A stretch of DNA of 37,528 nucleotides from a virus (lineage: Duplodnaviria > Heunggongvirae > Uroviricota > Caudoviricetes): the IMG/VR virus record IMGVR_UViG_2541047697_000003. One strand, given 5' to 3'. The notes under the pieces were generated by a model, which had not been told where the DNA came from, made no database searches, and saw only the letters and a program-made list of their open reading frames with translations. A program made the position numbers and the translations under genes. Positions 10,145-37,528 of this stretch are shown in pieces (the stretch's first letter is position 1; every line of letters starts with the position of its first letter).

Positions 10145-10711
10145 TCAGGGAGATTCATTGCTCTTATTTGCCGGAAATTTTCGATAAATTGTAGAAACGC
10201 CTACATCAAAAATCAGTGCAATACGCTGTCTTGATTCTCCGGCCTTGAGTAAACGCCCAATCTGTGCCCACTGTTCGCTGGTCAACTTAGGACGGCGTCC
10301 ACCTACTCTGCCTTTAACACGAGCTGCAGCCAGCCCTGCCCTGGTACGTTCAACTATCAGTTCGCGTTCCATTTCAGCCAGGGCACCCATGACATGAAAA
10401 AAGAAACGGCCCATTGGGGTACTGGTATCAATACTGTCAGTCAGGTTTCGGAAATTCACGCCACGCTGGCGCAACTCTTCTATCAGCGTAACAAGATGCC
10501 GCATACTGCGCCCTAACCTGTCCAGCTTCCAGACAACCAGAGTGTCTCCTGCCGATAGTGTCCTGAGCAGTTTTTTCAGCCCCGGTCTTTCGGACTTAGT
10601 GCCACTGATTTTGTCCTCAAAAATCCGCTCACATCCCGCGCAGTTCAGTGCATTACGTTGCAAATCGGTGTTCTGGTCATTTGTTGACACGCGTACATAG
10701 CCAATAAGCAT
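10145..10711 (-). CDS. serine-recombinase DNA invertase (Gin/Hin/Cin/Pin family)
   Basis: 188 aa from the ATG at 10711; N-terminus MLIGYVRVSTNDQNTDLQRNAL with the catalytic Ser, and C-terminal HTH; near-identical in pattern to Mu Gin / P1 Cin. Confidence 0.9.
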   Translation of the reverse strand: MLIGYVRVSTNDQNTDLQRNALNCAGCERIFEDKISGTKSERPGLKKLLRTLSAGDTLVVWKLDRLGRSMRHLVTLIEELRQRGVNFRNLTDSIDTSTPMGRFFFHVMGALAEMERELIVERTRAGLAAARVKGRVGGRRPKLTSEQWAQIGRLLKAGESRQRIALIFDVGVSTIYRKFPANKSNESP

Positions 10712-10766
10712 GATCAATCCCCTGAATAAATACCGGGGATGATGCCAGTTAGCCGTTACCTCTGCA

Positions 10767-16193: not shown

Positions 16194-17180
16194 ATGAAAA
16201 ATAAGAACCAGTATCAGGCTTTACTTAGAGGGAAGGTCGAATCGGCGATTGCTCAAGCCAAAAGTGCTGCAGGATTTTCCCACCAGGGTGTTAAGGGAGC
16301 TGTTCTAGAAATATTATTAAGTCAACTATTTCGACCTCTTTTGCCCGCAGATGTTGGCATCGGCACAGGGCAAATCATTGAACAGTATTCAGGAAAGTTA
16401 TCACCTCAAATAGATATTATTATTTACAATAAATCAATACTCCCTCCGATATTAATCGATGGTGCCACAGGGTTATTCCCAATAGAATCAGTTCTATATA
16501 CCATTGAGGTAAAAACCACATTAAGCTCATCGGAACTCAGCTCTGCACACTCAAGTGCAAAAGAACTTAATGAGAAATTCGGTTACTTACCTGGAATAAA
16601 AGATGAATCAGGCAAACTAATCCAACACAAAATAGAAAAACTTCGCTCGGTAATATTTGCTCTAAGTAGCGACTTATCACCAAATGGAATTACTGAAGCC
16701 GAAAGGTATAAAAAAATATACAAAGAAGACTTTCGTTACGTTACAGCAATTTGCGTTGCAGGTCGTGAGTATAGTTATGAAGATCGAGATTGCTGGGTAA
16801 CAATGCGTAATACTCAAGCGTATGATGAAATCCTTGCATTTATTGGAGGCATAACCAATACATACAAAGGTGTTTCAGAAAGTCGTGGGACACCATTGCT
16901 AGGATATTACATTGTTCCAGAGAATGTCGAACTGAGCCTTACAGCTTGTACCACACTCCCGGAATTGCAAGTTAAGTGCACGCAATGCGCTGAAACTAAA
17001 AAAATAATCCCCACCTTTGACAACGATGATGAACTAATACTAAAAAACTACACTCTTTCTGATAACAAGCCTTGTAAATGTGGTGGGGAATTTAAATCAG
17101 AAAAAGGTAATTTCACCATTAAAAATGGTCGACTGAGAGAAATAGAGTACAACGAGCCAGATCGAATTTACAAAGAGTAA
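16194..17180 (+). CDS. AT-rich cargo protein with a PD-(D/E)xK-like motif and a C-terminal Cys4 cluster (function unknown)
   Basis: 328-aa ORF with an ATG start; the only plus-strand gene in the late structural block, in the V-S slot; translation shows ...QIDIIIYNK...YTIEVKTT... and CTQC...CKCGG. Confidence 0.75.
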   Translation: MKNKNQYQALLRGKVESAIAQAKSAAGFSHQGVKGAVLEILLSQLFRPLLPADVGIGTGQIIEQYSGKLSPQIDIIIYNKSILPPILIDGATGLFPIESVLYTIEVKTTLSSSELSSAHSSAKELNEKFGYLPGIKDESGKLIQHKIEKLRSVIFALSSDLSPNGITEAERYKKIYKEDFRYVTAICVAGREYSYEDRDCWVTMRNTQAYDEILAFIGGITNTYKGVSESRGTPLLGYYIVPENVELSLTACTTLPELQVKCTQCAETKKIIPTFDNDDELILKNYTLSDNKPCKCGGEFKSEKGNFTIKNGRLREIEYNEPDRIYKE

Positions 17181-25632: not shown

Positions 25633-26718
25633 CTAACGTTTCAACCAAAGGTCATCTACAGAAAACGAATCGAATTCATTCTCAGATGGAGAATAAATAA
25701 AGCTCACTGTAAAATACGGTCTAACCAAAATCTCTAAAGTCACAACGTCACCATCACCATGAGTAAATGGGAATGCCGAATCTAAATCGCTTTTATTTTC
25801 AATATAATCCAAATAAGGAATATCCACTTCAATAAAAACCCGTCTCAAATTAAAAGAATAGGCAATGTAATATTTATCCGCATCAATTGAAGTGATGCCT
25901 TCAATATAGCCATCCTCGAAATCTTCGATGACATCAACTCTAACATCCAAAACATTCGAAACTCTAGACTCAAAAATATTATTTTCAAGGTATTGACTAA
26001 GCATCATGTGATTAAAACTTGATAAATAATCGATACACTCACCTTCTAGAAACTCCTCGAAATAAGGCTCACTTCTTGCATGATCAAAAGCATGGATACT
26101 CTTATCAATAGATGATGTAACGAAGTCAAATAGCTTCCGATATGGAGTTATTTTTTGTGTTATGCCTAACTCTTCAATATCTCTTAGAAGATCATCATTA
26201 AACGTTGCAGGACCTTTACTGTTGGTAAAAAAGTCTGAGCTATTCTCAGTAATAAATACAAAATCATCATTACCCCCTGATGATTTGATATATTGAAGAA
26301 AAGATAACCAGATCAACGTATCACGGTATCCTTTTTCTTGTTCTGAGAAAGGTTTTATCTTTTCAAGGGCCCTACCAACCACCTTAGCATGTGGAATATC
26401 GTTATAATCTATTAAAATTAAATTATCAACTTCCTTATTTAATATTTCTTTCAAATCATATTGTTCAATACCTAAGTTTTCAATTTTAAAATCTATTGGA
26501 TTCTGATTAAGCTTTTTAATTTTACTAATAATGGAACGCATTTCATTTAATTGATTTTTGAGCTCTCTATTCCTGATATTGTTAGTCTCCTCAATTACTA
26601 AATTTGATAATAACAAGTCGTTACATTCATTATTCAAAAAATGGAAAAGAAGTTTAAAATTAGCATTTTTAGCAAACCAATTATTGTAAAATATATTTGT
26701 ATCCAAAAAAACTTTCAT
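25633..26718 (-). CDS. AT-rich cargo protein with an N-terminal PIN-like motif (function unknown)
   Basis: 361-aa ORF with an ATG start; N-terminus MKVFLDTNIFYNNW resembles the first acidic strand of PIN-fold nucleases; lies between Q and the putative cos. Confidence 0.7.
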   Translation of the reverse strand: MKVFLDTNIFYNNWFAKNANFKLLFHFLNNECNDLLLSNLVIEETNNIRNRELKNQLNEMRSIISKIKKLNQNPIDFKIENLGIEQYDLKEILNKEVDNLILIDYNDIPHAKVVGRALEKIKPFSEQEKGYRDTLIWLSFLQYIKSSGGNDDFVFITENSSDFFTNSKGPATFNDDLLRDIEELGITQKITPYRKLFDFVTSSIDKSIHAFDHARSEPYFEEFLEGECIDYLSSFNHMMLSQYLENNIFESRVSNVLDVRVDVIEDFEDGYIEGITSIDADKYYIAYSFNLRRVFIEVDIPYLDYIENKSDLDSAFPFTHGDGDVVTLEILVRPYFTVSFIYSPSENEFDSFSVDDLWLKR

Positions 26719-26935
26719 CTGTCTTTTCCAGTGATGTAGTTAATAACATAGGTAATTATAAATTGAATTGTAGGCCGGATCCACTGATAGTGGATCCGGT
26801 TTAAAAGATTGCATTTATGGCAATGTCAAGTATAAAAACAACCACAACATAATGATTGTATATCCAAAGGCCGTCAGTAAATCATAGCAATTATCACTTA
26901 CAGGGGATGTGCGATTTTAATCGTTCAGCCGCGCG

Positions 26936-26954
26936 CTCATATCCCCGCCACGCC
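26936..26954 (-). other. putative cos (cohesive-end) site
   Basis: Minus-strand GGCGTGGCGGGGATATGAG followed by GCGCGCGGCTGAACG, resembling the P2/186 cohesive-end sequence as remembered (GGCG-A/T-GGCGGGGAAAGCA...); reads toward Q as in P2. Confidence 0.45.
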
Positions 26955-27240
26955 TGCCCGCTTTATGTAGCGGTTTTCATGCAGGTGCATGATCTACGCA
27001 AAATCCCACCAGTTCTGGCGGGCCTTAGCAAAAACGATCCGCAAACGATCATGCGATCTCATGCGGCATAGTCATGCACTTACGGGGGAACTGAAATCCA
27101 GTAACCGAATGATCGCTTGAAAAACGAAACATACGTACTTACAAAGCACAAAGCCTGCTTTGAGCGAAGCGGACGTTAATAATGTTGCTGACCATCCCTA
27201 GTACTTCTCATAATATAGCCCTATGTTAATCAACAAAATA

Positions 27241-29133
27241 TTAATTTGTCCCATCACTAAAGAATTTGATTGCGTCAGTTAGTACATAGTCAATGAAAAT
27301 TTTTACGTGAAAGACCTGAAAAACGCTATTTTCTGAGTTTTGAATGAAATCTACAGCTATATCTTTTAGGTTGATCAACCAGTTATATTCTTCAATCAGT
27401 CTAGTTCTGGCATCCGCATCAGAATAACGACTCCGTAAGCTAAATGCCAGTTTCCTCATGATAACTGGATCAAGTTTCCTATAGCTTTCAATGAAAACAT
27501 CAGCAGGAACTAAGTGTAAAAAAGGTACGTCATGAAGATTTAACTGTCTATTATTAGAATGACTCAATTCAGATAACAACGATGATTTTCCCCTTTGTAA
27601 CTCATCTCTGAACTGCAATGCAAATTCCGAAATTGATTCATCAAACCGTTTCTTCCTTGCTATTTTAATATGTTCAATAATGAGCTTAAAGTCATCACTA
27701 TCCCTGTCAAGAAAACTTAAACTACGCCATCCCCTTAATTCGTTATAATGCGTTTGCGCATATTCCTTATGTACATCTTCAGCTCTCAGTCTATTATAAT
27801 AATTATTTATATTCTGTTTTGTCTCATTTATGAGATCATGAACATCATCTGTTGTTAGACCTTCTTTCGCCATTTCCAGCAAAATACTCGCTGTCATCAG
27901 GAGTTCACCTAAGGTAGTGATCTTACCTGAAAATAGGTTATCCTTAGCAATAGCGTACTGCTCATAAAGCATAGTTTCATTTAGTTCTCTATAGTTCCAC
28001 AAACACCTCCATGCTGGTGAATCGCTGCTTCTAAAAAAACGCGTAACATCCAACTGAGCAAGAAGATCACCCGTTACCTTTCCATCACAGATTAGTTCTC
28101 TCCAAGACGCGCCATCCAGTAACTTCTCGGTTAATACAGGAGACGAATATTTCTCGACAATCATGTCATACTTACTTTTGACGCGTTCTTTACCCAAAAA
28201 CATACCATAATTAACATTGCCGATTGAATTGAAATCCTCGTAGCTAAGATTCCCTCCCCGGTACTCCATCGAAAAAATTAACAATTGATGAAAAAACACC
28301 CTTATAAATTCATCGTTACTTAAATATTTATCTCCCAAAAGGGAAATAATTCGTTGTACATCGAGAAAGAACTGCCTCAAGTGTCTTAGATTATTATAAT
28401 TCGCTGACACATAGAGGTCCTCTATTGTCTGCATATCTTCTTTAAATATATTAGCAACATGCAAACTACTAATTACGTTCAAGAAAATCTTACAAGCACT
28501 ATGTAAATCTGACGTTACTTCAAATGTTTTACCTACTAGCTTTTCTTTTGTTCTCATGTATTCATTGCGATATTTCTCATCATCATTATTTATTCGCTTT
28601 TCTCTATTGATTATTTCATCTTCATTGGCAACCAAGATCGCTTTGTATCCGTTTACTTCCACAAAGTGATTTATATATCCAAATAAGATTGGTAAATCTA
28701 CACCAGCTCTCTCGACATCATCAAAGACCAGCACAAAACCATCTGGTTTTCTAGTAAAGTCGCTAAGATTAATGGTGGGAACATTGCTATTGATATCTAC
28801 GTCAGATTTATTATCGCCATTAAGATCGATCTTGAAAGTAGCCTTAAGCGTATTTTTTAGTACATTTGCACCAAAGATAAGGGCTTTGTTTGATAGGACA
28901 GGATGCAATTGACGATAGAACTCATCTTCAATCTGCTCAATAGAGTTGACGCCATACAAGCTCACTTTTAGAAATTTGAACTCTGAATGTTTCTGCTTAT
29001 ATTCTTCAAGAACTCGTTCAATGAACCAAGTTTTACCTGATCCCCAAGCACCTTTAAGCATAATGGCGTATTGAGGTTCAGTTTTAAGGCTAAGGTAATA
29101 TTCTATATAGTCTTTGATGTACGTATTGTGCAT
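27241..29133 (-). CDS. AT-rich cargo P-loop NTPase with a KAP-type Walker A (function unknown)
   Basis: 630 aa from the ATG at 29133 (track start is TTG at 29184); Walker A LKGAWGSGKTWF and Walker B-like FVLVFDDVER; long helical C-terminal region. Confidence 0.7.
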   Translation of the reverse strand: MHNTYIKDYIEYYLSLKTEPQYAIMLKGAWGSGKTWFIERVLEEYKQKHSEFKFLKVSLYGVNSIEQIEDEFYRQLHPVLSNKALIFGANVLKNTLKATFKIDLNGDNKSDVDINSNVPTINLSDFTRKPDGFVLVFDDVERAGVDLPILFGYINHFVEVNGYKAILVANEDEIINREKRINNDDEKYRNEYMRTKEKLVGKTFEVTSDLHSACKIFLNVISSLHVANIFKEDMQTIEDLYVSANYNNLRHLRQFFLDVQRIISLLGDKYLSNDEFIRVFFHQLLIFSMEYRGGNLSYEDFNSIGNVNYGMFLGKERVKSKYDMIVEKYSSPVLTEKLLDGASWRELICDGKVTGDLLAQLDVTRFFRSSDSPAWRCLWNYRELNETMLYEQYAIAKDNLFSGKITTLGELLMTASILLEMAKEGLTTDDVHDLINETKQNINNYYNRLRAEDVHKEYAQTHYNELRGWRSLSFLDRDSDDFKLIIEHIKIARKKRFDESISEFALQFRDELQRGKSSLLSELSHSNNRQLNLHDVPFLHLVPADVFIESYRKLDPVIMRKLAFSLRSRYSDADARTRLIEEYNWLINLKDIAVDFIQNSENSVFQVFHVKIFIDYVLTDAIKFFSDGTN

Positions 29134-29454
29134 TTTTAGTCCATTTTTATAAAATACATAAACATAGATGGTAAGTAGAGCCAAAGGCCAACTATGGAAA
29201 ATTCAATCGGTAGTGTACATTGTAAGGTTATTATTGGTAAATATTATAGGAATACCCATAATCTTACAAAATTCAGATTATCCGTTGCAAATTAGTCTGC
29301 TATTCGTTAATTGACGAAAGATAGCAGAAGAAATGTTCGCTTCTGGCACAAAGCGGACGATCACTTATAAAAATGACCGCCCACCTTACGCCTTATTTCA
29401 CTCATTGCCCAAACTAGCCCCCATCAGAGTGAATCCTCCTGGGGGCAACATTTC

Positions 29455-30039: not shown

Positions 30040-30396
30040 TTAATACAGGTTCCGCCACTTATCATCTTCCTGCAAACGCTGGTTCCGATAGAAGATACGC
30101 AGGCCTGCTCCTGACGGAATACTGCCGCCGCGAAGGAGTAAATCGACCTCTTTCTCGCTACCATCAAATCCTCTGGACTTCAGTTCATAGGCGAGCTGCT
30201 GTCGCTGATGGTCTGTAATTCGCTGTTTGTAGTCTTTACGCCGTTTCGGTTTCACCAGGCGTAACCTTGCTGCCAGTTCCCGGCGCTCTTTTTTGCTCAT
30301 ACTGTGCAGGTAATCGTGCAACTCCTTGTCATCCATGCGGGTGATATCCGTTCTGGTATCCCCATCAGCTGATTTGTCTTTCCCTTGTTGGTTCAA
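30040..30396 (-). CDS. hypothetical basic protein downstream of A
   Basis: 118-aa ORF from a TTG (internal ATGs at 30336 and 30300); no clear RBS; highly charged. Confidence 0.35.
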
Positions 30397-32480
30397 ATTT
30401 TCAGCAAGGGGACAGTTATTGCCACGAGTCCAAGGGGACAGTTATTGCCACGAGTCCAAGGGGCGCAAGCGCCCTGGTCGGCTGCCGCCTCCTGAACGTC
30501 AACGGCCTTACGAACCATTTTCCACTTCACTGCATGAGTGCAGATTTTGCCCTCTGCAATGGGTGACCAGATGCCATAAATACGAATGCCGTGATCGCCA
30601 TAGGCGGTCGGCTCTTCGTTGATTTCATAAGCGGTTCTGATGAGGTGATATTTACGGGGAACCAGTACGCCGCCCTGCTTCATGATGTAGGTGGCAAAAC
30701 AACCAGCATCAGCTGCAGCCAGAATGGCATCAAGGCGCGGGTTATCCAGTACCGGCGCACCTGCTTTTTTGTCACCCTGTTGCCTTGCCACCTGACCAGC
30801 CAGCAATCGCAGTTCACGGTAAGCCTGACGCCCCGGAATGCCAAAGAAGCGGAATTGCTGAACACGATGCAGAGACGCCCAGGCATTAACGTATTCAGCG
30901 TTATCACGCAGAGATTTACCCGTTTCCTTGCTGATCTCGCCAGCCAGACCACGCCCGTCAATGTTCTTACTGATGTATTTCGCGATGTAGCTTGTCGGCG
31001 TTCCTTTGCGCGGGTTTATCAGCTCAGATTTAAAGCGTGGACCAGTGTTATTACCCAGTTCCTCGCGGTCTTCACGGATGGCAAACTTACGCAACAATGC
31101 AGTAATGGCGCGGCGGTCTTTTTTGCGCATGAAACACAACAGGTGCCAGTGAACTGTACCGTCATGATGCGGCTCAGCCACCCGCACGCCATACCAGCGC
31201 AACCCGGCTTTGTGCATCGCCTTACGAAATGCAGCAAACATGCCGACCAGATAATCGCTGCTTTGTCTTACCGTCGCATTTGTCCAGGTTGGGTTTGGTC
31301 TGCCGTTATTGAGCGTGGAATGGAAACGTGACGGACAGGTAATGGTGTAGAAAACGGCGCAGTCACCGCGCATTTCCGCGATAAGCTCCAGACCTTTAAC
31401 ACAGGCCATCATCTCATTGCGGCGGTGCGCCGGGTTGCTGCTGCTGGCGTTTACCACGTCTTCCATATCCAGCGTGTCGCCCTCTTCGTTCACCAGTTCA
31501 TGAGAACGGAAAAACTCCAGTGACTTGCGGCGCTGCTCACGTTTATGCATCACGGCTTCATAGCTGACATAGGGAGATGCTTTTTTGCTGACCAGGCAGA
31601 CAGCACGCAACTGCTCTTCCCGCCATTCGCAACGCATTTTCCATAATTTCCGGTACCACCAGTCGGCGCACAACATACGCGCCAGCGAACCCGGAATGAG
31701 TTCATAGGGCACGGGTTTACGGCGGTTTCTTTTCCGACGGAGTTGCTCAAACGCAGGCGGGATGACATCCAGACGCAGGGTTTCCGCTGCCACCTTTTCC
31801 CATGTCTTGCGGATTTCTTCTGGCTTAACGTCATCGGTGGCATACAAATCACCACAAGCTGCATCAAGGCACATGCTCATATGCGCAGCGACAAGGGTAG
31901 ACAGGCGTTTCACCTGATCCTGACTCATTTCAGGCAGAATCAGCAGGCCGTCCAGCCCTACATGGCTTGCCATAAAACGAAAAGATGCAGATAGCTGGCT
32001 GTCGCGTACATGCTCCAGTCGTTCCAGACATGGCTTAATCGTCTCACGTAAATAGCGGGAATAAGCCTTTGGCCTGCCCAGGCTGTTAAAGTATTCAATA
32101 CGTTGCATCAGCGGCTTGCTGATATGGGAGGGCTGGGCGCTGACGTCTGCCAGAATGACCATGTCCGGGTTAAAACGCTGCTGCTCATGCGCCAACTTTG
32201 CCCGGCTAATGAGCTTATCCTGCTCTATTTCGCGTTGGACAGGATCACGGGATTCATTAAAGAAATAACGCTCCCAGACCTGATCACTCAGTGCCTCGCG
32301 GCGCAGTTGTTCCTGCTCGTTATCGGCAGCGTACAGAGTGATCAGGTTTGAAAGCGCAGAAACCGGCGCAACTTCCGCCGGGTCCAGATAAGGGTTAATG
32401 GCCTTTTTCGGGCTGTTCCATGAGAACGATGCGGCAGCCTCGTTAAAGCCGCAGCAGTTGCTCATATCGGCATGGCTCAT
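30393..32480 (-). CDS. A: replication initiation endonuclease gpA-like (rolling-circle, HUH-Y family)
   Basis: 695-aa ORF; HWHLL (HUH-like) and SYIAKYISK tyrosine motifs; ATG overlaps the dam stop. Confidence 0.9.
30405..30474. repeat. tandem direct repeat (2 x 26 bp plus a partial third copy) followed by a 14-bp palindrome, inside the 3' end of gene A
   Basis: caaggggacagttattgccacgagtc at 30405-30430 and 30431-30456, then caagggg; then gggcgc-aa-gcgccc at 30461-30474. Confidence 0.8.
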
Positions 32481-34447: not shown

Positions 34448-34621
34448 TTGGACTTTCTCCGTTTCCTCGTGGTCAATTTAGACAGCAATTCATCTTGTGA
34501 ATGACATGGATGCCAGCGTTTTCCATCCTCACCCGTGATCCAGCCGTGACCGTAGTGCATTGCCGGGCTTTGTTTTACCAGCAGCGATGCAAATGATGGT
34601 TCTTTCGTCAGCATAAGCACC

Positions 34622-35131
34622 TCACAGCAAACCGAATGAAGCACCGAGGCCAGTCACGGTATCAACTGCACTCGCCATCGCAGGGTTAGCCTGTAAACGG
34701 GCCTGCAATGAAACAGCAGCCAACGCCATCAGTCGTGTTACAGAGTTAATGCTGCTGATAGCATCACGACGACCTGCACTGGTTTTTACATCGCCAGATA
34801 CCGCACCTGCAGCAACACGCCCGATCTCTGCGGTTGCACTCATGACGTAATGTGGCAGTTTCTCTTTTGCCACCTCATTAATTGGTACGCATGGCAGGCA
34901 GTGAATCTGTGCCAGAAAACCATCTACCAACGTTGAATCTTCAGTCAGATCGGTAAGCAGCCAGATTTCTGGTGCGGTTAATAAATGAGGTTGAGCTGGG
35001 TTCAGCTTGTTCCGCAGAATCTGCACATTCATGCCCGCACGTTCTGCCAGTTGCACCAGATTGTGGCGCAGTGCGAATGCACGACAGGCTTCATCAAAAT
35101 GTGGATGTTTGGAAACTTGGTAATCAAACAT
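34622..35131 (-). CDS. cII: CII-like lysogeny-establishment transcriptional activator (186 CII family)
   Basis: 169 aa from the ATG at 35131; [25 protein letters not shown]...[22 protein letters not shown] is closely similar to 186 CII from memory. Confidence 0.8.
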
Positions 35132-35163
35132 GGTCAATGCCTCTGATGTATTTCAGAATCGAA

Positions 35164-35385
35164 CTAATTAAGGTTTAGATTGCATTCTGAAAGCGCATCA
35201 ACGGTCATGGCTGCTATGTTGATCATCACTTTTTCGCGTTTTTTATCTTTGCGCAAACGGTGACGGATAAGGCGTCCATCAGCCAACATGTCATTGATAG
35301 TATCGATGGACAGCCCTGTCAGCTCGCTATAGCGTTCAATAGTCACATGAGGCGTGGTAAGAGTGATTGAAATGTTAGGTCTCAT
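35164..35385 (-). CDS. apl: Apl/Cox-like excisionase and repressor of the lysogenic promoter
   Basis: 73-aa ORF, first gene of the rightward early operon, divergent from cI; HTH-like [21 protein letters not shown]. Confidence 0.7.
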
Positions 35386-35510
35386 GATGCAACATTCCTC
35401 GTTTAATGATGATTAATCAGGACGAATACGGATCGTTTGTATTTTGTGAACACCATAAACATACGATCGCACGGTGAAATCGTCAAGACAAAAGTTCACT
35501 TGGAGTGACC
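35386..35510. promoter_or_regulatory. immunity switch region (divergent/face-to-face early and repressor promoters with operator-like inverted repeats)
   Basis: 125-bp intergenic between apl and cI; GTGAAC (35446-35451) and GTTCAC (35494-35499) inverted, with a GTGAAA copy between them. Confidence 0.45.
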
Positions 35511-36080
35511 ATGAATTTGGAGAAAGGCGGACGAGGCGCTATAGAGCGCATGGTAGAAGCTTATGGATTCAAGACTCGACAGGCGTTGTGCGATCATTTA
35601 GGAATCTCTAAAAGTACACTCGCCACACGCTACATGCGTGACTCATTCCCAGCAGAATGGGTAATCCAGTGCGCCCTTGAAACAGGCACCTCGCTTAATT
35701 GGCTCACAACCGGGCATGGTTCAAAGCAAACTTCAGGTAATACAAATACTATGGAAGTTGCTAAATATGTATTATCTGATGGGGCCTTGTGTGAAGACGG
35801 TTTTTATATTTTCGATAGAGAATTTCTACCGTCGGCATACAAGAATCTTTTTGTAATCACAGATAATAATTCTGAATTTATTTGTGATAAGGAATTTGAT
35901 GATATACGTGATGGTAAATGGGTAATAAGTATTGATGGCGAAATAACGATCCGTGACATTACTCGTTTACCCGGTGGAAGAATCTTCGTCGAGGGTGGAA
36001 ACAGAGCCTTCGAATGCAAGATAGAAGACATTGAAATAATTGGTAAAATTATAAGTTTAACAGTCAAGTATGTTAAATAG
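35511..36080 (+). CDS. cI: CI-like immunity repressor (186 CI family)
   Basis: 189 aa from the ATG at 35511 with GGAG upstream; N-terminal HTH (AYGFKTRQALCDHLGISKSTLATRY) and a C-terminal oligomerisation domain; resembles 186 CI. Confidence 0.8.
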   Translation: MNLEKGGRGAIERMVEAYGFKTRQALCDHLGISKSTLATRYMRDSFPAEWVIQCALETGTSLNWLTTGHGSKQTSGNTNTMEVAKYVLSDGALCEDGFYIFDREFLPSAYKNLFVITDNNSEFICDKEFDDIRDGKWVISIDGEITIRDITRLPGGRIFVEGGNRAFECKIEDIEIIGKIISLTVKYVK

Positions 36081-36095
36081 TACCGGGAGGAAATT

Positions 36096-36287
36096 ATGCT
36101 TGGTAAGGTATTTTTTGTGGTTTTGTCATGTTCTTTGTTATTAAACCCACTAGCTACCTATGCTAGAAATTATCCCTGCTCAGGGAAAAAGGGAGGTGTT
36201 TCTCACTGTACCTCTGATGGCAAATTCGTTTGCAATGATGGAACTATTAGTAAATCCAAAAAAATCTGTACTAAAAACTCACGATAA
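36096..36287 (+). CDS. small secreted Cys-rich peptide (moron between cI and int)
   Basis: 63 aa; strong GGGAGG RBS 5 nt upstream; signal-peptide-like N-terminus [23 protein letters not shown]; mature part has four Cys; AT-rich. Confidence 0.5.
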
Positions 36288-36475
36288 CTTTTGCTTTTAT
36301 ATCTGCGCCTAAAATAAAAATGAGCCACAGGTTAACCGCAAAAGTTACATGCTCACATAGCAAAAAGAATAGTCTACTTCATTATGGCTTCAGTGAGATG
36401 TATGGTCGCAGGATTTCATACATTGACACTGGTTATACATACAGTAAAAATGCTCTCTATTGGAGGGCATTTTTT

Positions 36476-37528
36476 ATGGCTGTACGAAAACTCACCACAG
36501 GAAAATGGCTTTGCGAATGTTACCCCGCCGGACGTAGTGGACGTCGTGTGCGTAAACAATTCGCCACCAAAGGCGAAGCACTGGCTTTTGAGCGTCACAC
36601 GATGGAAGAAACCGAAGCAAAGCCCTGGCTAGGTGAATCAGTGGATCGTCGAACACTGAAAGACGTGGTTGAGCTATGGTTCAAACTACATGGTAAATCA
36701 CTGACAGCTGGGCAGCATGTCTATGACAAATTGCTGCTGATGGTTGACGCTCTGGGCAATCCCCTTGCAACCGATCTAACCTCTAAAATGTTTGCCCACT
36801 ATCGAGATAAACGCCTGACAGGTGAGATCTACTTCAGCGAGAAATGGAAGAAAGGAGCAAGCCCGGTCACCATTAACCTGGAGCAAAGCTATCTAAGTAG
36901 TGTTTTTAGCGAACTATCCCGCCTGGGCGAATGGTCGTATCCGAACCCACTGGAGAACATGCGAAAATTCACCATCGCAGAAAAAGAGATGGCATGGCTT
37001 ACCCATGAGCAGATTGTTGAATTACTGGCTGATTGCAAACGTCATGACCCAATTCTGGCACTGGTAGTTAAGATATGCTTAAGCACAGGCGCACGCTGGC
37101 GAGAAGCCGTAAATCTTACTCGTTCACAGGTGACCAAATACCGAATTACCTTTGTAAGAACGAAGGGGAAGAAAAACAGAAGCATCCCTATCAGTAAAGA
37201 GCTTTACGAAGAGATCATGGCGCTTGATGGGTTCAATTTCTTCACAGACTGCTATTTTCAATTTTTATCCGTGATGGAAAAAACGTCTATCGTCCTCCCT
37301 CGCGGTCAACTGACACACGTTCTGCGCCATACGTTTGCGGCGCATTTCATGATGTCGGGTGGAAATATCCTTGCTTTGCAAAAAATCCTCGGACATCACG
37401 ATATAAAAATGACTATGCGTTACGCTCATCTGGCACCGGATCATCTGGAAACGGCGCTCCGTTTCAACCCTCTGGCAACGCTGCCAAGTGGCGACAAAGT
37501 GGCGGCAGCGGTTGGCATTACCCCGTAA
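36476..37528 (+). CDS. int: tyrosine integrase (P2/186 Int family)
   Basis: 350 aa from the ATG at 36476 with GGAGGG upstream (track ORF starts further up); C-terminal HxLRH ... RYAHL catalytic pattern; stop codon is the final triplet of the window. Confidence 0.9.
   Translation: MAVRKLTTGKWLCECYPAGRSGRRVRKQFATKGEALAFERHTMEETEAKPWLGESVDRRTLKDVVELWFKLHGKSLTAGQHVYDKLLLMVDALGNPLATDLTSKMFAHYRDKRLTGEIYFSEKWKKGASPVTINLEQSYLSSVFSELSRLGEWSYPNPLENMRKFTIAEKEMAWLTHEQIVELLADCKRHDPILALVVKICLSTGARWREAVNLTRSQVTKYRITFVRTKGKKNRSIPISKELYEEIMALDGFNFFTDCYFQFLSVMEKTSIVLPRGQLTHVLRHTFAAHFMMSGGNILALQKILGHHDIKMTMRYAHLAPDHLETALRFNPLATLPSGDKVAAAVGITP

Follow-up and report, generated by a model that had tools for sequence, protein, structure and literature searches.

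What is the role of a small open reading frame (ORF) that lies between the repressor gene and the integrase gene of a prophage and appears to encode an exported, cysteine-rich peptide? This question is raised by positions 36,081 to 36,475 of the virus record IMGVR_UViG_2541047697_000003 from IMG/VR, a stretch of 37,528 nucleotides (nt) which is called the window in the following. The window represents an Escherichia coli chromosomal segment with a P2/186-like prophage, whose end is the integrase stop codon and adjoins rcdA and ybjJ; its region 35400-36600 is 100% identical to NZ_LT883142.1. The ORF is a real gene of the YdcA family, and we consider it somewhat probable that it follows cI as the second, and probably the final, cistron of the lysogenic operon and that it provides an exported periplasmic binding module, which perhaps excludes competing DNA. 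The features on which this reading is built are the following:

35511..36080, + strand: 186-type CI repressor gene (cI), directly upstream of the ydcA-family gene (Pfam Phage_CI_repr 2.8e-33 and Phage_CI_C 2.5e-27; RefSeq 'phage repressor protein CI').
36086..36090, + strand: Shine-Dalgarno sequence GGAGG, read from the sequence, 5 nt before the ATG.
36096..36287, + strand: YdcA-family gene of 63 codons plus TAA stop (ORF list, NF007463, PHROG 6000, precomputed PF27300, RefSeq coding sequence (CDS) WP_001513672.1).
36096..36164, + strand: predicted Sec-type signal peptide, residues 1-23 (invariant Ala at -1 in 33 homologues; helix of residues 3-15 in the AlphaFold2 model).
36165..36284, + strand: predicted mature peptide of 40 amino acids (aa) with four conserved Cys and a pI of 9.7 (two alignments, substitution pattern, AlphaFold2 model, superposition on a Dis2 lobe).
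36476..37528, + strand: tyrosine integrase gene, int (Pfam Int_N 3.2e-32 and Phage_integrase 7.2e-22; RefSeq CDS).

An earlier note, made from the letters of the window, had described a small gene at this place, with a near-consensus ribosome-binding site, an AT-rich ORF of 63 aa, a signal-peptide-like N-terminus and a mature peptide of about 40 residues with four Cys. This description holds. The ORF begins 15 nt downstream of the cI stop codon TAG (36078-36080) on the same strand, its start and stop are identical to those of the RefSeq entry, and it is separated from int by 188 nt. Its GC content is 35.9%, and the values for the C-terminal domain of cI (34.2%) and the gap before int (36.2%) compare with 48% for int and 50.1% for the window. 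In the deduced protein, K4 is followed by a hydrophobic stretch (residues 5-19), and cleavage is predicted at T-Y-A|R; the predicted mature peptide has a mass of 4.3 kDa and carries Cys28, 38, 46 and 58. A fifth Cys, Cys12 within the signal peptide, is not conserved among the homologues. Hence, the product has no lipobox, and the check for one that the earlier note had recommended turned out negative. A lipoprotein was rejected for this reason and because V-L-S-C12 comes too early and the hydrophobic region runs past C12.

The ORF has known relatives: its protein family already has a name, and the ORF itself is annotated in RefSeq, which increasingly uses the label 'YdcA family protein'. The NCBIfam model NF007463 (YdcA/PRK10040 family) matched with 114.6 bits against a curated cutoff of 93 (E = 1.3e-33; residues 5-63 of the protein, positions 1-58 of the 58 in the model), PHROG 6000 matched with E = 3.1e-34, and Pfam PF27300 'YdcA' is precomputed for the identical protein (P0001), which represents a cluster of 355 members and occurs on at least 1000 contigs. 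The homology search proposed in the earlier note hence leads to this family. An older Pfam-A library gave only a sub-threshold GULLO2-like match, PF27300 being evidently newer. Both the family motif, PCSGxKGG...F[VI]CxDG[ST]xSxSK with four Cys, and the family architecture, i.e. a hydrophobic leader of variable sequence, a fixed Ala at -1 and a conserved core of approximately 35-40 aa, are present in the window protein. The equivalog model for the K-12 protein, NF007462, scored 68.5 bits and stayed under its cutoff of 118, which argues for a paralogue of b1419 and not for an orthologue. A circularly permuted DUF3761 domain, considered because of the motif CxDGxxSxS...CSxHGGV, was rejected, as permuted and duplicated sequences gave no Pfam match to it. 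The function of YdcA is described as unknown (PMC11340327), and we found no functional study in the YdcA literature beyond the notes on 3-hydroxypropionate and on YdcI that are discussed below.

Evidence for a functional gene comes from its conservation. Two alignments were used, one with 33 sequences that includes two apparently disrupted variants (A1) and one with 25 intact homologues (A2). All four Cys are invariant in 25 of the 25 sequences of A2, where the complete set of invariant columns reads P, C, S, K, G, G, C, F, C, D, G, S, S, K, C. The larger alignment shows little variation in the core, where C38 and C46 are found in all sequences and C28 and C58 are conserved to at least 90%; in the leader, which varies freely, only the Ala at -1 is fixed. 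The proportions of non-synonymous and synonymous differences (pN and pS) were computed over the 32 codons of the mature core between the window allele and divergent prophage alleles. They amounted to a saturated pS of 0.86-0.96 with a pN of only 0.03-0.07 for other enterobacterial prophage alleles, and to a pS of 0.78 with a pN of 0.13 for the allele of Haemophilus phage HP2. Similarity among the alleles at the DNA level is restricted to the codons of the mature peptide, and the signal peptide and cI are far more diverged than this peptide. Across three comparisons, the aa identity of the YdcA core was approximately 94, 88 and 75% (counted), whereas it was 71, 59 and 38% for cI and 98, 67 and 51% for int; the C-terminal domains of CI from the related loci are 29-55% identical to that of the window. 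Judged from these patterns, the gene is real and under very strong constraint at the protein level. From Enterobacteria to phages of Haemophilus and Moraxella, the core of 32 residues has hardly changed, although the repressor next to it fell to 38% identity, which may imply a conserved target in the envelope.

The earlier note had regarded a disruption of the ORF in close relatives as an argument against its importance. The ORF is intact in all 80 IMG/VR loci examined, which encode two protein alleles with leader residue 20 as their sole difference; these copies are near-identical and thus informative on intactness but not on diversity. Furthermore, the segment cI-ORF-int was found at a coverage of at least 80% in 591 of 5426 complete E. 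coli genomes (approximately 11%), including strains HS, C and a derivative of B.

The next question is whether the position beside cI has any meaning. The earlier note had treated the ORF as a peculiar insertion at this locus, and its statement that cI and int are adjacent elsewhere is correct for SopEPhi, where cI lies directly next to int. The idea of a peculiar insertion did not hold, because the ORF belongs to a named family whose genes are repeatedly found, across many genera, directly after a cI of the 186 type. The order is cI-YdcA-KAP NTPase-int in another E. coli prophage (L008, same attB) and likewise cI-YdcA-KAP-int in a Klebsiella prophage, cI-YdcA-347 aa-int in Hafnia, cI-YdcA-int in Yersinia and in Enterobacter, here with a gap of 3 nt to int, and cI-YdcA-orf1(S)-int in the Haemophilus phages HP2 and S2. 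The latter two contain an intact homologue of 60 codons, whose ATG overlaps the cI stop codon (TAATG) and which is unannotated in the GenBank records. In every enterobacterial or Pasteurellaceae homologue locus that we looked up, the YdcA gene was the first gene after the 186-type cI. Since the repressors are only 38-71% identical to that of the window, yet the YdcA core is conserved to approximately 75-94%, the gene seems to have travelled with this repressor type for long; going by these comparisons, it is a long-standing companion of 186-type cI and not a recent insertion. Among the deposited phage genomes, tblastn found YdcA matches only in Moraxella, Acinetobacter, Haemophilus and Pseudomonas phages, and none in deposited enterobacterial phage isolates with this CI type.

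The ORF lies on the same strand only 15 nt after the cI stop codon and we found no terminator-like site between the two genes, which makes expression from the lysogenic transcript the natural assumption. In the HP2 record, pL is annotated as the promoter of the lysogeny genes. A promoter of its own was rejected for the ORF, because no promoter-like site was found upstream of it on the + strand; the promoter-like sites of the region numbered 4 as compared with 4.2 expected by chance. As a side observation, a site with 11 of 12 consensus positions, TTAACA-N17-TATAAT, lies antisense to the 3' end of cI (36076-36048, - strand), and such sites occur at chance count in this AT-rich region. Downstream of the ORF, three elements matter:

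36285..36347, + strand: long hairpin that starts from the ydcA stop codon (AACUUUUGC...GCAAAAGUU), without U-tract (fold -15.3 kcal/mol, z = -3.3).
36423..36451, + strand: promoter-like TTGACA-N17-AAAAAT in the conserved int leader (10 of 12 in the consensus scan; kept in four other prophages with different cargo).
36446..36474, + strand: terminator-like hairpin of 13 bp with U6, which buries the int Shine-Dalgarno sequence GGAGGG (fold -17.5 kcal/mol, z = -6.4).

The approximately 130 nt 3' of the ORF had no match in 14 comparison loci, yet 36081-36475 is present in approximately 590 E. coli genomes. In contrast, the int leader, i.e. the last 60 nt or so before int (36418-36475), is conserved across prophages with different cargo, and an equivalent of its hairpin was found in all five aligned loci, with register shifts among the five sequences. 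A transcript from the local promoter-like site would not contain the 5' arm of this hairpin, whereas a read-through transcript would form it, which suggests that the lysogenic unit ends after ydcA and that transcripts from the cI operon are terminated or translationally silenced at the int leader, with a transcript from the local promoter remaining open. The hairpin at 36446-36474 is hence the likely 3' boundary of a cI-ydcA unit. The earlier note had placed cI, the ORF and int on one lysogenic transcript. The inclusion of cI and the ORF agrees with spacing, strand and the missing terminator-like site, though by inference, but int has its own conserved promoter-like site and a leader with hairpin and U-tract, so that the unit is more likely cI-ydcA than cI-ydcA-int.

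What kind of protein would be produced? AlphaFold2 predicted a small beta-hairpin core with a predicted local distance difference test score of 82.5 for the mature part and 87-90 in its centre, preceded by the leader helix. When the full model was compared with the Protein Data Bank (PDB) by Foldseek, the top and only credible match was chain AN of 7MUC/7MUD, which is Dis2 (Lpg0823) of Legionella (prob 0.98, 38% identity). With the model of the mature part only, the alignment to a Dis2 lobe reached TMq 0.63, a root-mean-square deviation of 1.8 Å over 35 columns and 40% identity (prob 0.80). The Dis2 chain was also the top match in an hmmsearch of the PDB, where both lobes were matched, with E = 4.5e-5 if the leader was included but 0.099 without it. 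Alignments by hhalign to Dis2-like proteins gave P = 9e-5 and 1.2e-5, and one of these proteins carries a Pfam PF27300 match. Taken together, model and profile comparisons make it probable that the YdcA core is homologous to and shares the fold of the Dis2 lobe, and they mark Dis2 as the best, and sole credible, solved relative by fold and sequence. In the papers on Dis2 that we consulted, it was called Legionella-specific and without structural relatives. We found no paper that links YdcA to Dis2, yet PF27300 evidently matches a Dis2-like protein. Dis2 sits close to the outer membrane, in contact with the lipoproteins DotK, DotC and DotD (PMC8486379, PMC12716638).

The distribution of the domain gives further hints. 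A profile search of 1.84 billion representative proteins resulted in 334 clusters (50% identity) at E <= 1e-3, in which some proteins contain two or three tandem copies, and at least 530 viral contigs in IMG/VR encode a YdcA relative. In the Moraxella Mcat phages and Acinetobacter phage Ab11510-phi, the gene lies within the tail-gene cluster ahead of the genes for large tail proteins, while in mobilisable Acinetobacter/Psychrobacter plasmids of 3.9-5.4 kb it is one of only five genes; large Acinetobacter and Rhizobium plasmids carry it as well. Copies in core genomes are represented by K-12 ydcA beside rydC and hokB/sokB, verified in the sequence, and by a homologue of 57 aa (P0050) beside dsbC, hom and cysS. 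Among 46 family members of at least 110 aa, the fusion partners were SNase (twice), a PLD-type nuclease, Endonuclease_NS, PBCV basic adaptor-like motifs (twice) and VasL of type VI secretion, so that three unrelated types of secreted nuclease are represented. In each of the long sequences inspected, the YdcA domain comes immediately after the signal peptide, and in the nuclease fusions it is the N-terminal part. Moreover, a 133-aa YdcA-domain protein is encoded on a Citrobacter plasmid within a type VI secretion system (T6SS) cluster, where the adjacent genes encode a GIY-YIG nuclease and a VasL protein, and in HP2 the YdcA gene is followed by a gene for a secreted OB-fold (tRNA_anti-like) protein. 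The recurrence with secreted nucleases and envelope-spanning machines fits a binding or docking module rather than an enzyme.

Two observations on relatives may be added here. Beta-proteobacterial homologues (P0056-P0062, P0183) have a C-terminal Cys extension, CxGPRGGxYC...GxKxY, that is PBCV-basic-adaptor-like, with sub-threshold scores for single sequences and E 1.1e-4 for the best member. In Moraxella phage Mcat15 and on Moraxellaceae plasmids, the genes that come after the YdcA gene encode N-terminally membrane-anchored proteins (L016 966-1697; L017 1281-2240 (-); L002 3626-4264), which gave no Pfam family match and show weak C-terminal similarity to each other (blastp, Api_243-Psy_319 1.6e-5 and Mcat15_212-Psy_319 8e-8). 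They may be a lineage-specific partner, as far as these comparisons indicate. A general two-gene system with a conserved downstream partner was rejected, as the blastp links are weak and none of them reaches the enterobacterial or HP2 neighbours.

From these data, the following scenario can be proposed. The gene would be transcribed together with cI from the lysogenic promoter and probably translated efficiently from the GGAGG ribosome-binding site seen in the sequence. Its product would be exported via Sec and cleaved after Ala23 to a soluble protein and not a lipoprotein, as suggested by the sequence and the alignments, and would then fold in the periplasm into a beta-hairpin mini-domain of approximately 4.3 kDa, presumably with two disulfides among its four Cys, for which the AlphaFold2 model and the Dis2 lobes provide the template; in these lobes the disulfides were seen in the cryo-electron microscopy density. 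Because the mature mini-domain shows no catalytic features and the family is associated with nucleases and secretion machines, we propose a binding module. As a guess, it would most likely dock on a conserved outer-membrane-proximal structure of the envelope or on nucleic acid crossing the periplasm, and the benefit in the lysogen, again a guess, would most likely be to hinder the entry of competing DNA, i.e. superinfection exclusion in a broad sense. Like superinfection-exclusion genes of lysogeny modules, the present gene lies between cI and int, and with its signal peptide the product is predicted to act in the envelope. Entry exclusion or lysogenic conversion, both named in the earlier note, are plausible. 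It is tempting, though doubtful, to extend this to the whole family: the YdcA/Dis2-lobe mini-domain could be a periplasmic module that recognises DNA or outer-membrane-proximal translocation machinery, whose stand-alone copies (in prophages beside cI, in tail modules and on tiny plasmids) represent a widespread class of envelope-level exclusion against phage, conjugative and transforming DNA, while other copies tether secreted nucleases or decorate type IV secretion systems (T4SS) and T6SS.

Several points weigh against the proposal of an exclusion module. The scan of the YdcA protein with PADLOC-DB 2.0 gave no match at E <= 1e-3. The copies in core genomes (K-12 ydcA and P0050) indicate that the family does not exclusively serve phages, and deletion of K-12 ydcA resulted in a stress phenotype, sensitivity to 3-hydroxypropionate, and not in a phage phenotype (PMC7642389). 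Furthermore, the high basic charge is not a family-wide property, being lower in Dis2 and in the nuclease-fused copies, and this makes a simple model of DNA binding less convincing. The solved relative gives no clear function either, since deletion of dis2 had only subtle effects (PMC12716638).

Some of these points are shared by the main rival explanation, according to which the protein is a host-fitness or lysogenic-conversion factor that improves envelope or stress tolerance of the lysogen, as chromosomal YdcA may do, without targeting incoming DNA or phages. We regard this as rather unlikely. In its favour, an E. coli W strain without ydcA is sensitive to 300 mM 3-hydroxypropionate, ydcA is reported to be controlled by YdcI and induced by acid (PMC7642389), the core-genome copies occur in housekeeping contexts, and the mature core is 78% identical to K-12 YdcA. 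However, the sole reported phenotype is indirect and was suppressed by deletion of yieP, and the score under the NF007462 cutoff marks the ORF as a paralogue and not the same gene. Moreover, a fitness factor would not account for why the gene stays linked to cI, why it occurs on tiny plasmids and within phage tail modules, or why the family is associated with nucleases, T4SS and T6SS.

Much less probable is a secreted antimicrobial, i.e. a bacteriocin-like, cationic and disulfide-stabilised toxin with a neighbouring membrane protein as immunity factor on small plasmids, although the mature peptide is indeed cationic (pI 9.7) with four Cys and weakly related membrane-anchored proteins are encoded downstream on the small Acinetobacter/Psychrobacter plasmids and in Mcat15. 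A Sec leader reaches only the periplasm in Gram-negatives, the window has no exporter, double-glycine leader or immunity gene and the ORF is flanked by cI and int, singleton copies on chromosomes are tolerated, and the same domain serves as structural subunit in Dis2 and as N-terminal module of enzymes. The suggestion of a small toxin in the earlier note found no support. Finally, the coding sequence could be incidental and the segment could act as RNA or spacer for int expression or stability of the cI mRNA. In fact, strong RNA structure is predicted downstream of the ORF and in the int leader (fold of 36280-36490 with z = -5, in addition to the hairpin of -17.5 kcal/mol), but the conservation at the protein level with saturated synonymous change, the DNA similarity confined to mature-peptide codons and the occurrence of the same peptide in unrelated genomic contexts speak against it, and the Rfam scan of 34500-37528 gave no match. 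The pN/pS pattern effectively refutes this possibility, to which we assign next to no probability.

The surroundings of the gene show further cargo. The slot between cI (or ydcA) and int contains PD-Lambda-1 in vB_EcoM-813R9 (L005 3785-5461), and between ydcA and int a PDC-S20 KAP NTPase in the E. coli prophage mentioned above (L008 4198-5529; the PADLOC scan covered this locus) and a KAP NTPase of the same size in Klebsiella. Proteins of 347-349 aa occupy the same slot in Hafnia and in Klebsiella phage 4LV2017 (L012 4247-5290; L006 3767-4816); they gave no Pfam or PADLOC match and are candidates for new defence genes. Cargo at this position agrees with the minor integrase-primase defence hotspot of P2-like phages, as 8% of the P2 defence systems were found between integrase and primase (PMC13586616). 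Elsewhere in the window, the following genes were noted:

34622-35137, - strand: cII-like gene.
35164-35385, - strand: apl/cox-like gene.
25633-29184, - strand: classical hotspot for defence genes in P2, flanked by gpA (30393-32480) and the portal gene, with two genes, one for a 647-aa KAP NTPase (match to PADLOC candidate system PDC-S49, 8.7e-157) and one for a 361-aa PIN_12 protein (no PADLOC match).
16194-17180, + strand: ORF of 328 aa opposite in strand to the surrounding large structural-region ORFs (DUF6602; PADLOC PD-(D/E)xK and NucC-type nuclease models 6.6e-32), probably another defence moron.
10145-10717, - strand: serine resolvase/invertase gene within the prophage (Resolvase and HTH_7), as a guess a tail-fibre inversion switch.

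The locus matters for several reasons. Approximately one in nine complete E. coli genomes carries exactly this locus. Expected to be expressed with the repressor, the gene is a prime candidate for causing a phenotype in lysogens, for example exclusion or a changed envelope, and the active part is a peptide of just 40 aa, which is easy to test. While the family name and the RefSeq annotation were already known, this analysis adds the linkage to cI, the near-frozen mature peptide, the probable relationship to Dis2 and the nuclease fusions.

How does the locus compare with known systems? Superinfection-exclusion genes between integrase and repressor are exemplified by Ltp of Streptococcus phage TP-J34 and Sie2009 of lactococcal P335 phages. 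The likeness includes a small exported or membrane protein, a gene between repressor and integrase and expression in the lysogen. However, a sequence relationship is not apparent, Ltp is a lipoprotein whereas the YdcA protein is predicted not to be one, and exclusion by YdcA proteins would be a hypothesis. With the defence cargo in the hotspots of P2-like prophages (PMC9122126, PMC13586616), the YdcA gene shares the integrase-proximal variable slot, but its protein has no PADLOC match and is predicted to be exported and not cytoplasmic, and the gene stays beside cI whereas the recognised defence genes downstream vary from prophage to prophage.

The closest named relative is K-12 YdcA (b1419) with its YdcA/PRK10040 family (NF007462-4, PF27300, PHROG 6000). 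Both proteins have a Sec leader and a core of approximately 35 aa with PCSGxKGG[VI]SHC...GKFVCNDG[ST]ISxSKKxC, and the cores are 78% identical, but the window gene represents a prophage-borne paralogous subfamily in a phage immunity operon, whereas the K-12 gene lies beside rydC and hokB. Dis2 of the Dot/Icm T4SS of Legionella has in common the motif CS-x-x-GG[VI]-x-x-C-x(2,3)-G-x-x-VCN[DN]G-x-x-S, and both proteins would be periplasmic and disulfide-stabilised, as far as this can be deduced for the window protein. Dis2 is a T4SS component built of two lobes that five disulfides hold in place, whereas the window protein corresponds to one lobe with four Cys, and T4SS genes were absent among the examined ORFs of the window, which comprise the P2-like prophage and flanking host genes. 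Through the probable homology, the 'Legionella-specific' subunit would gain a large family of relatives, and YdcA would gain its first structural template.

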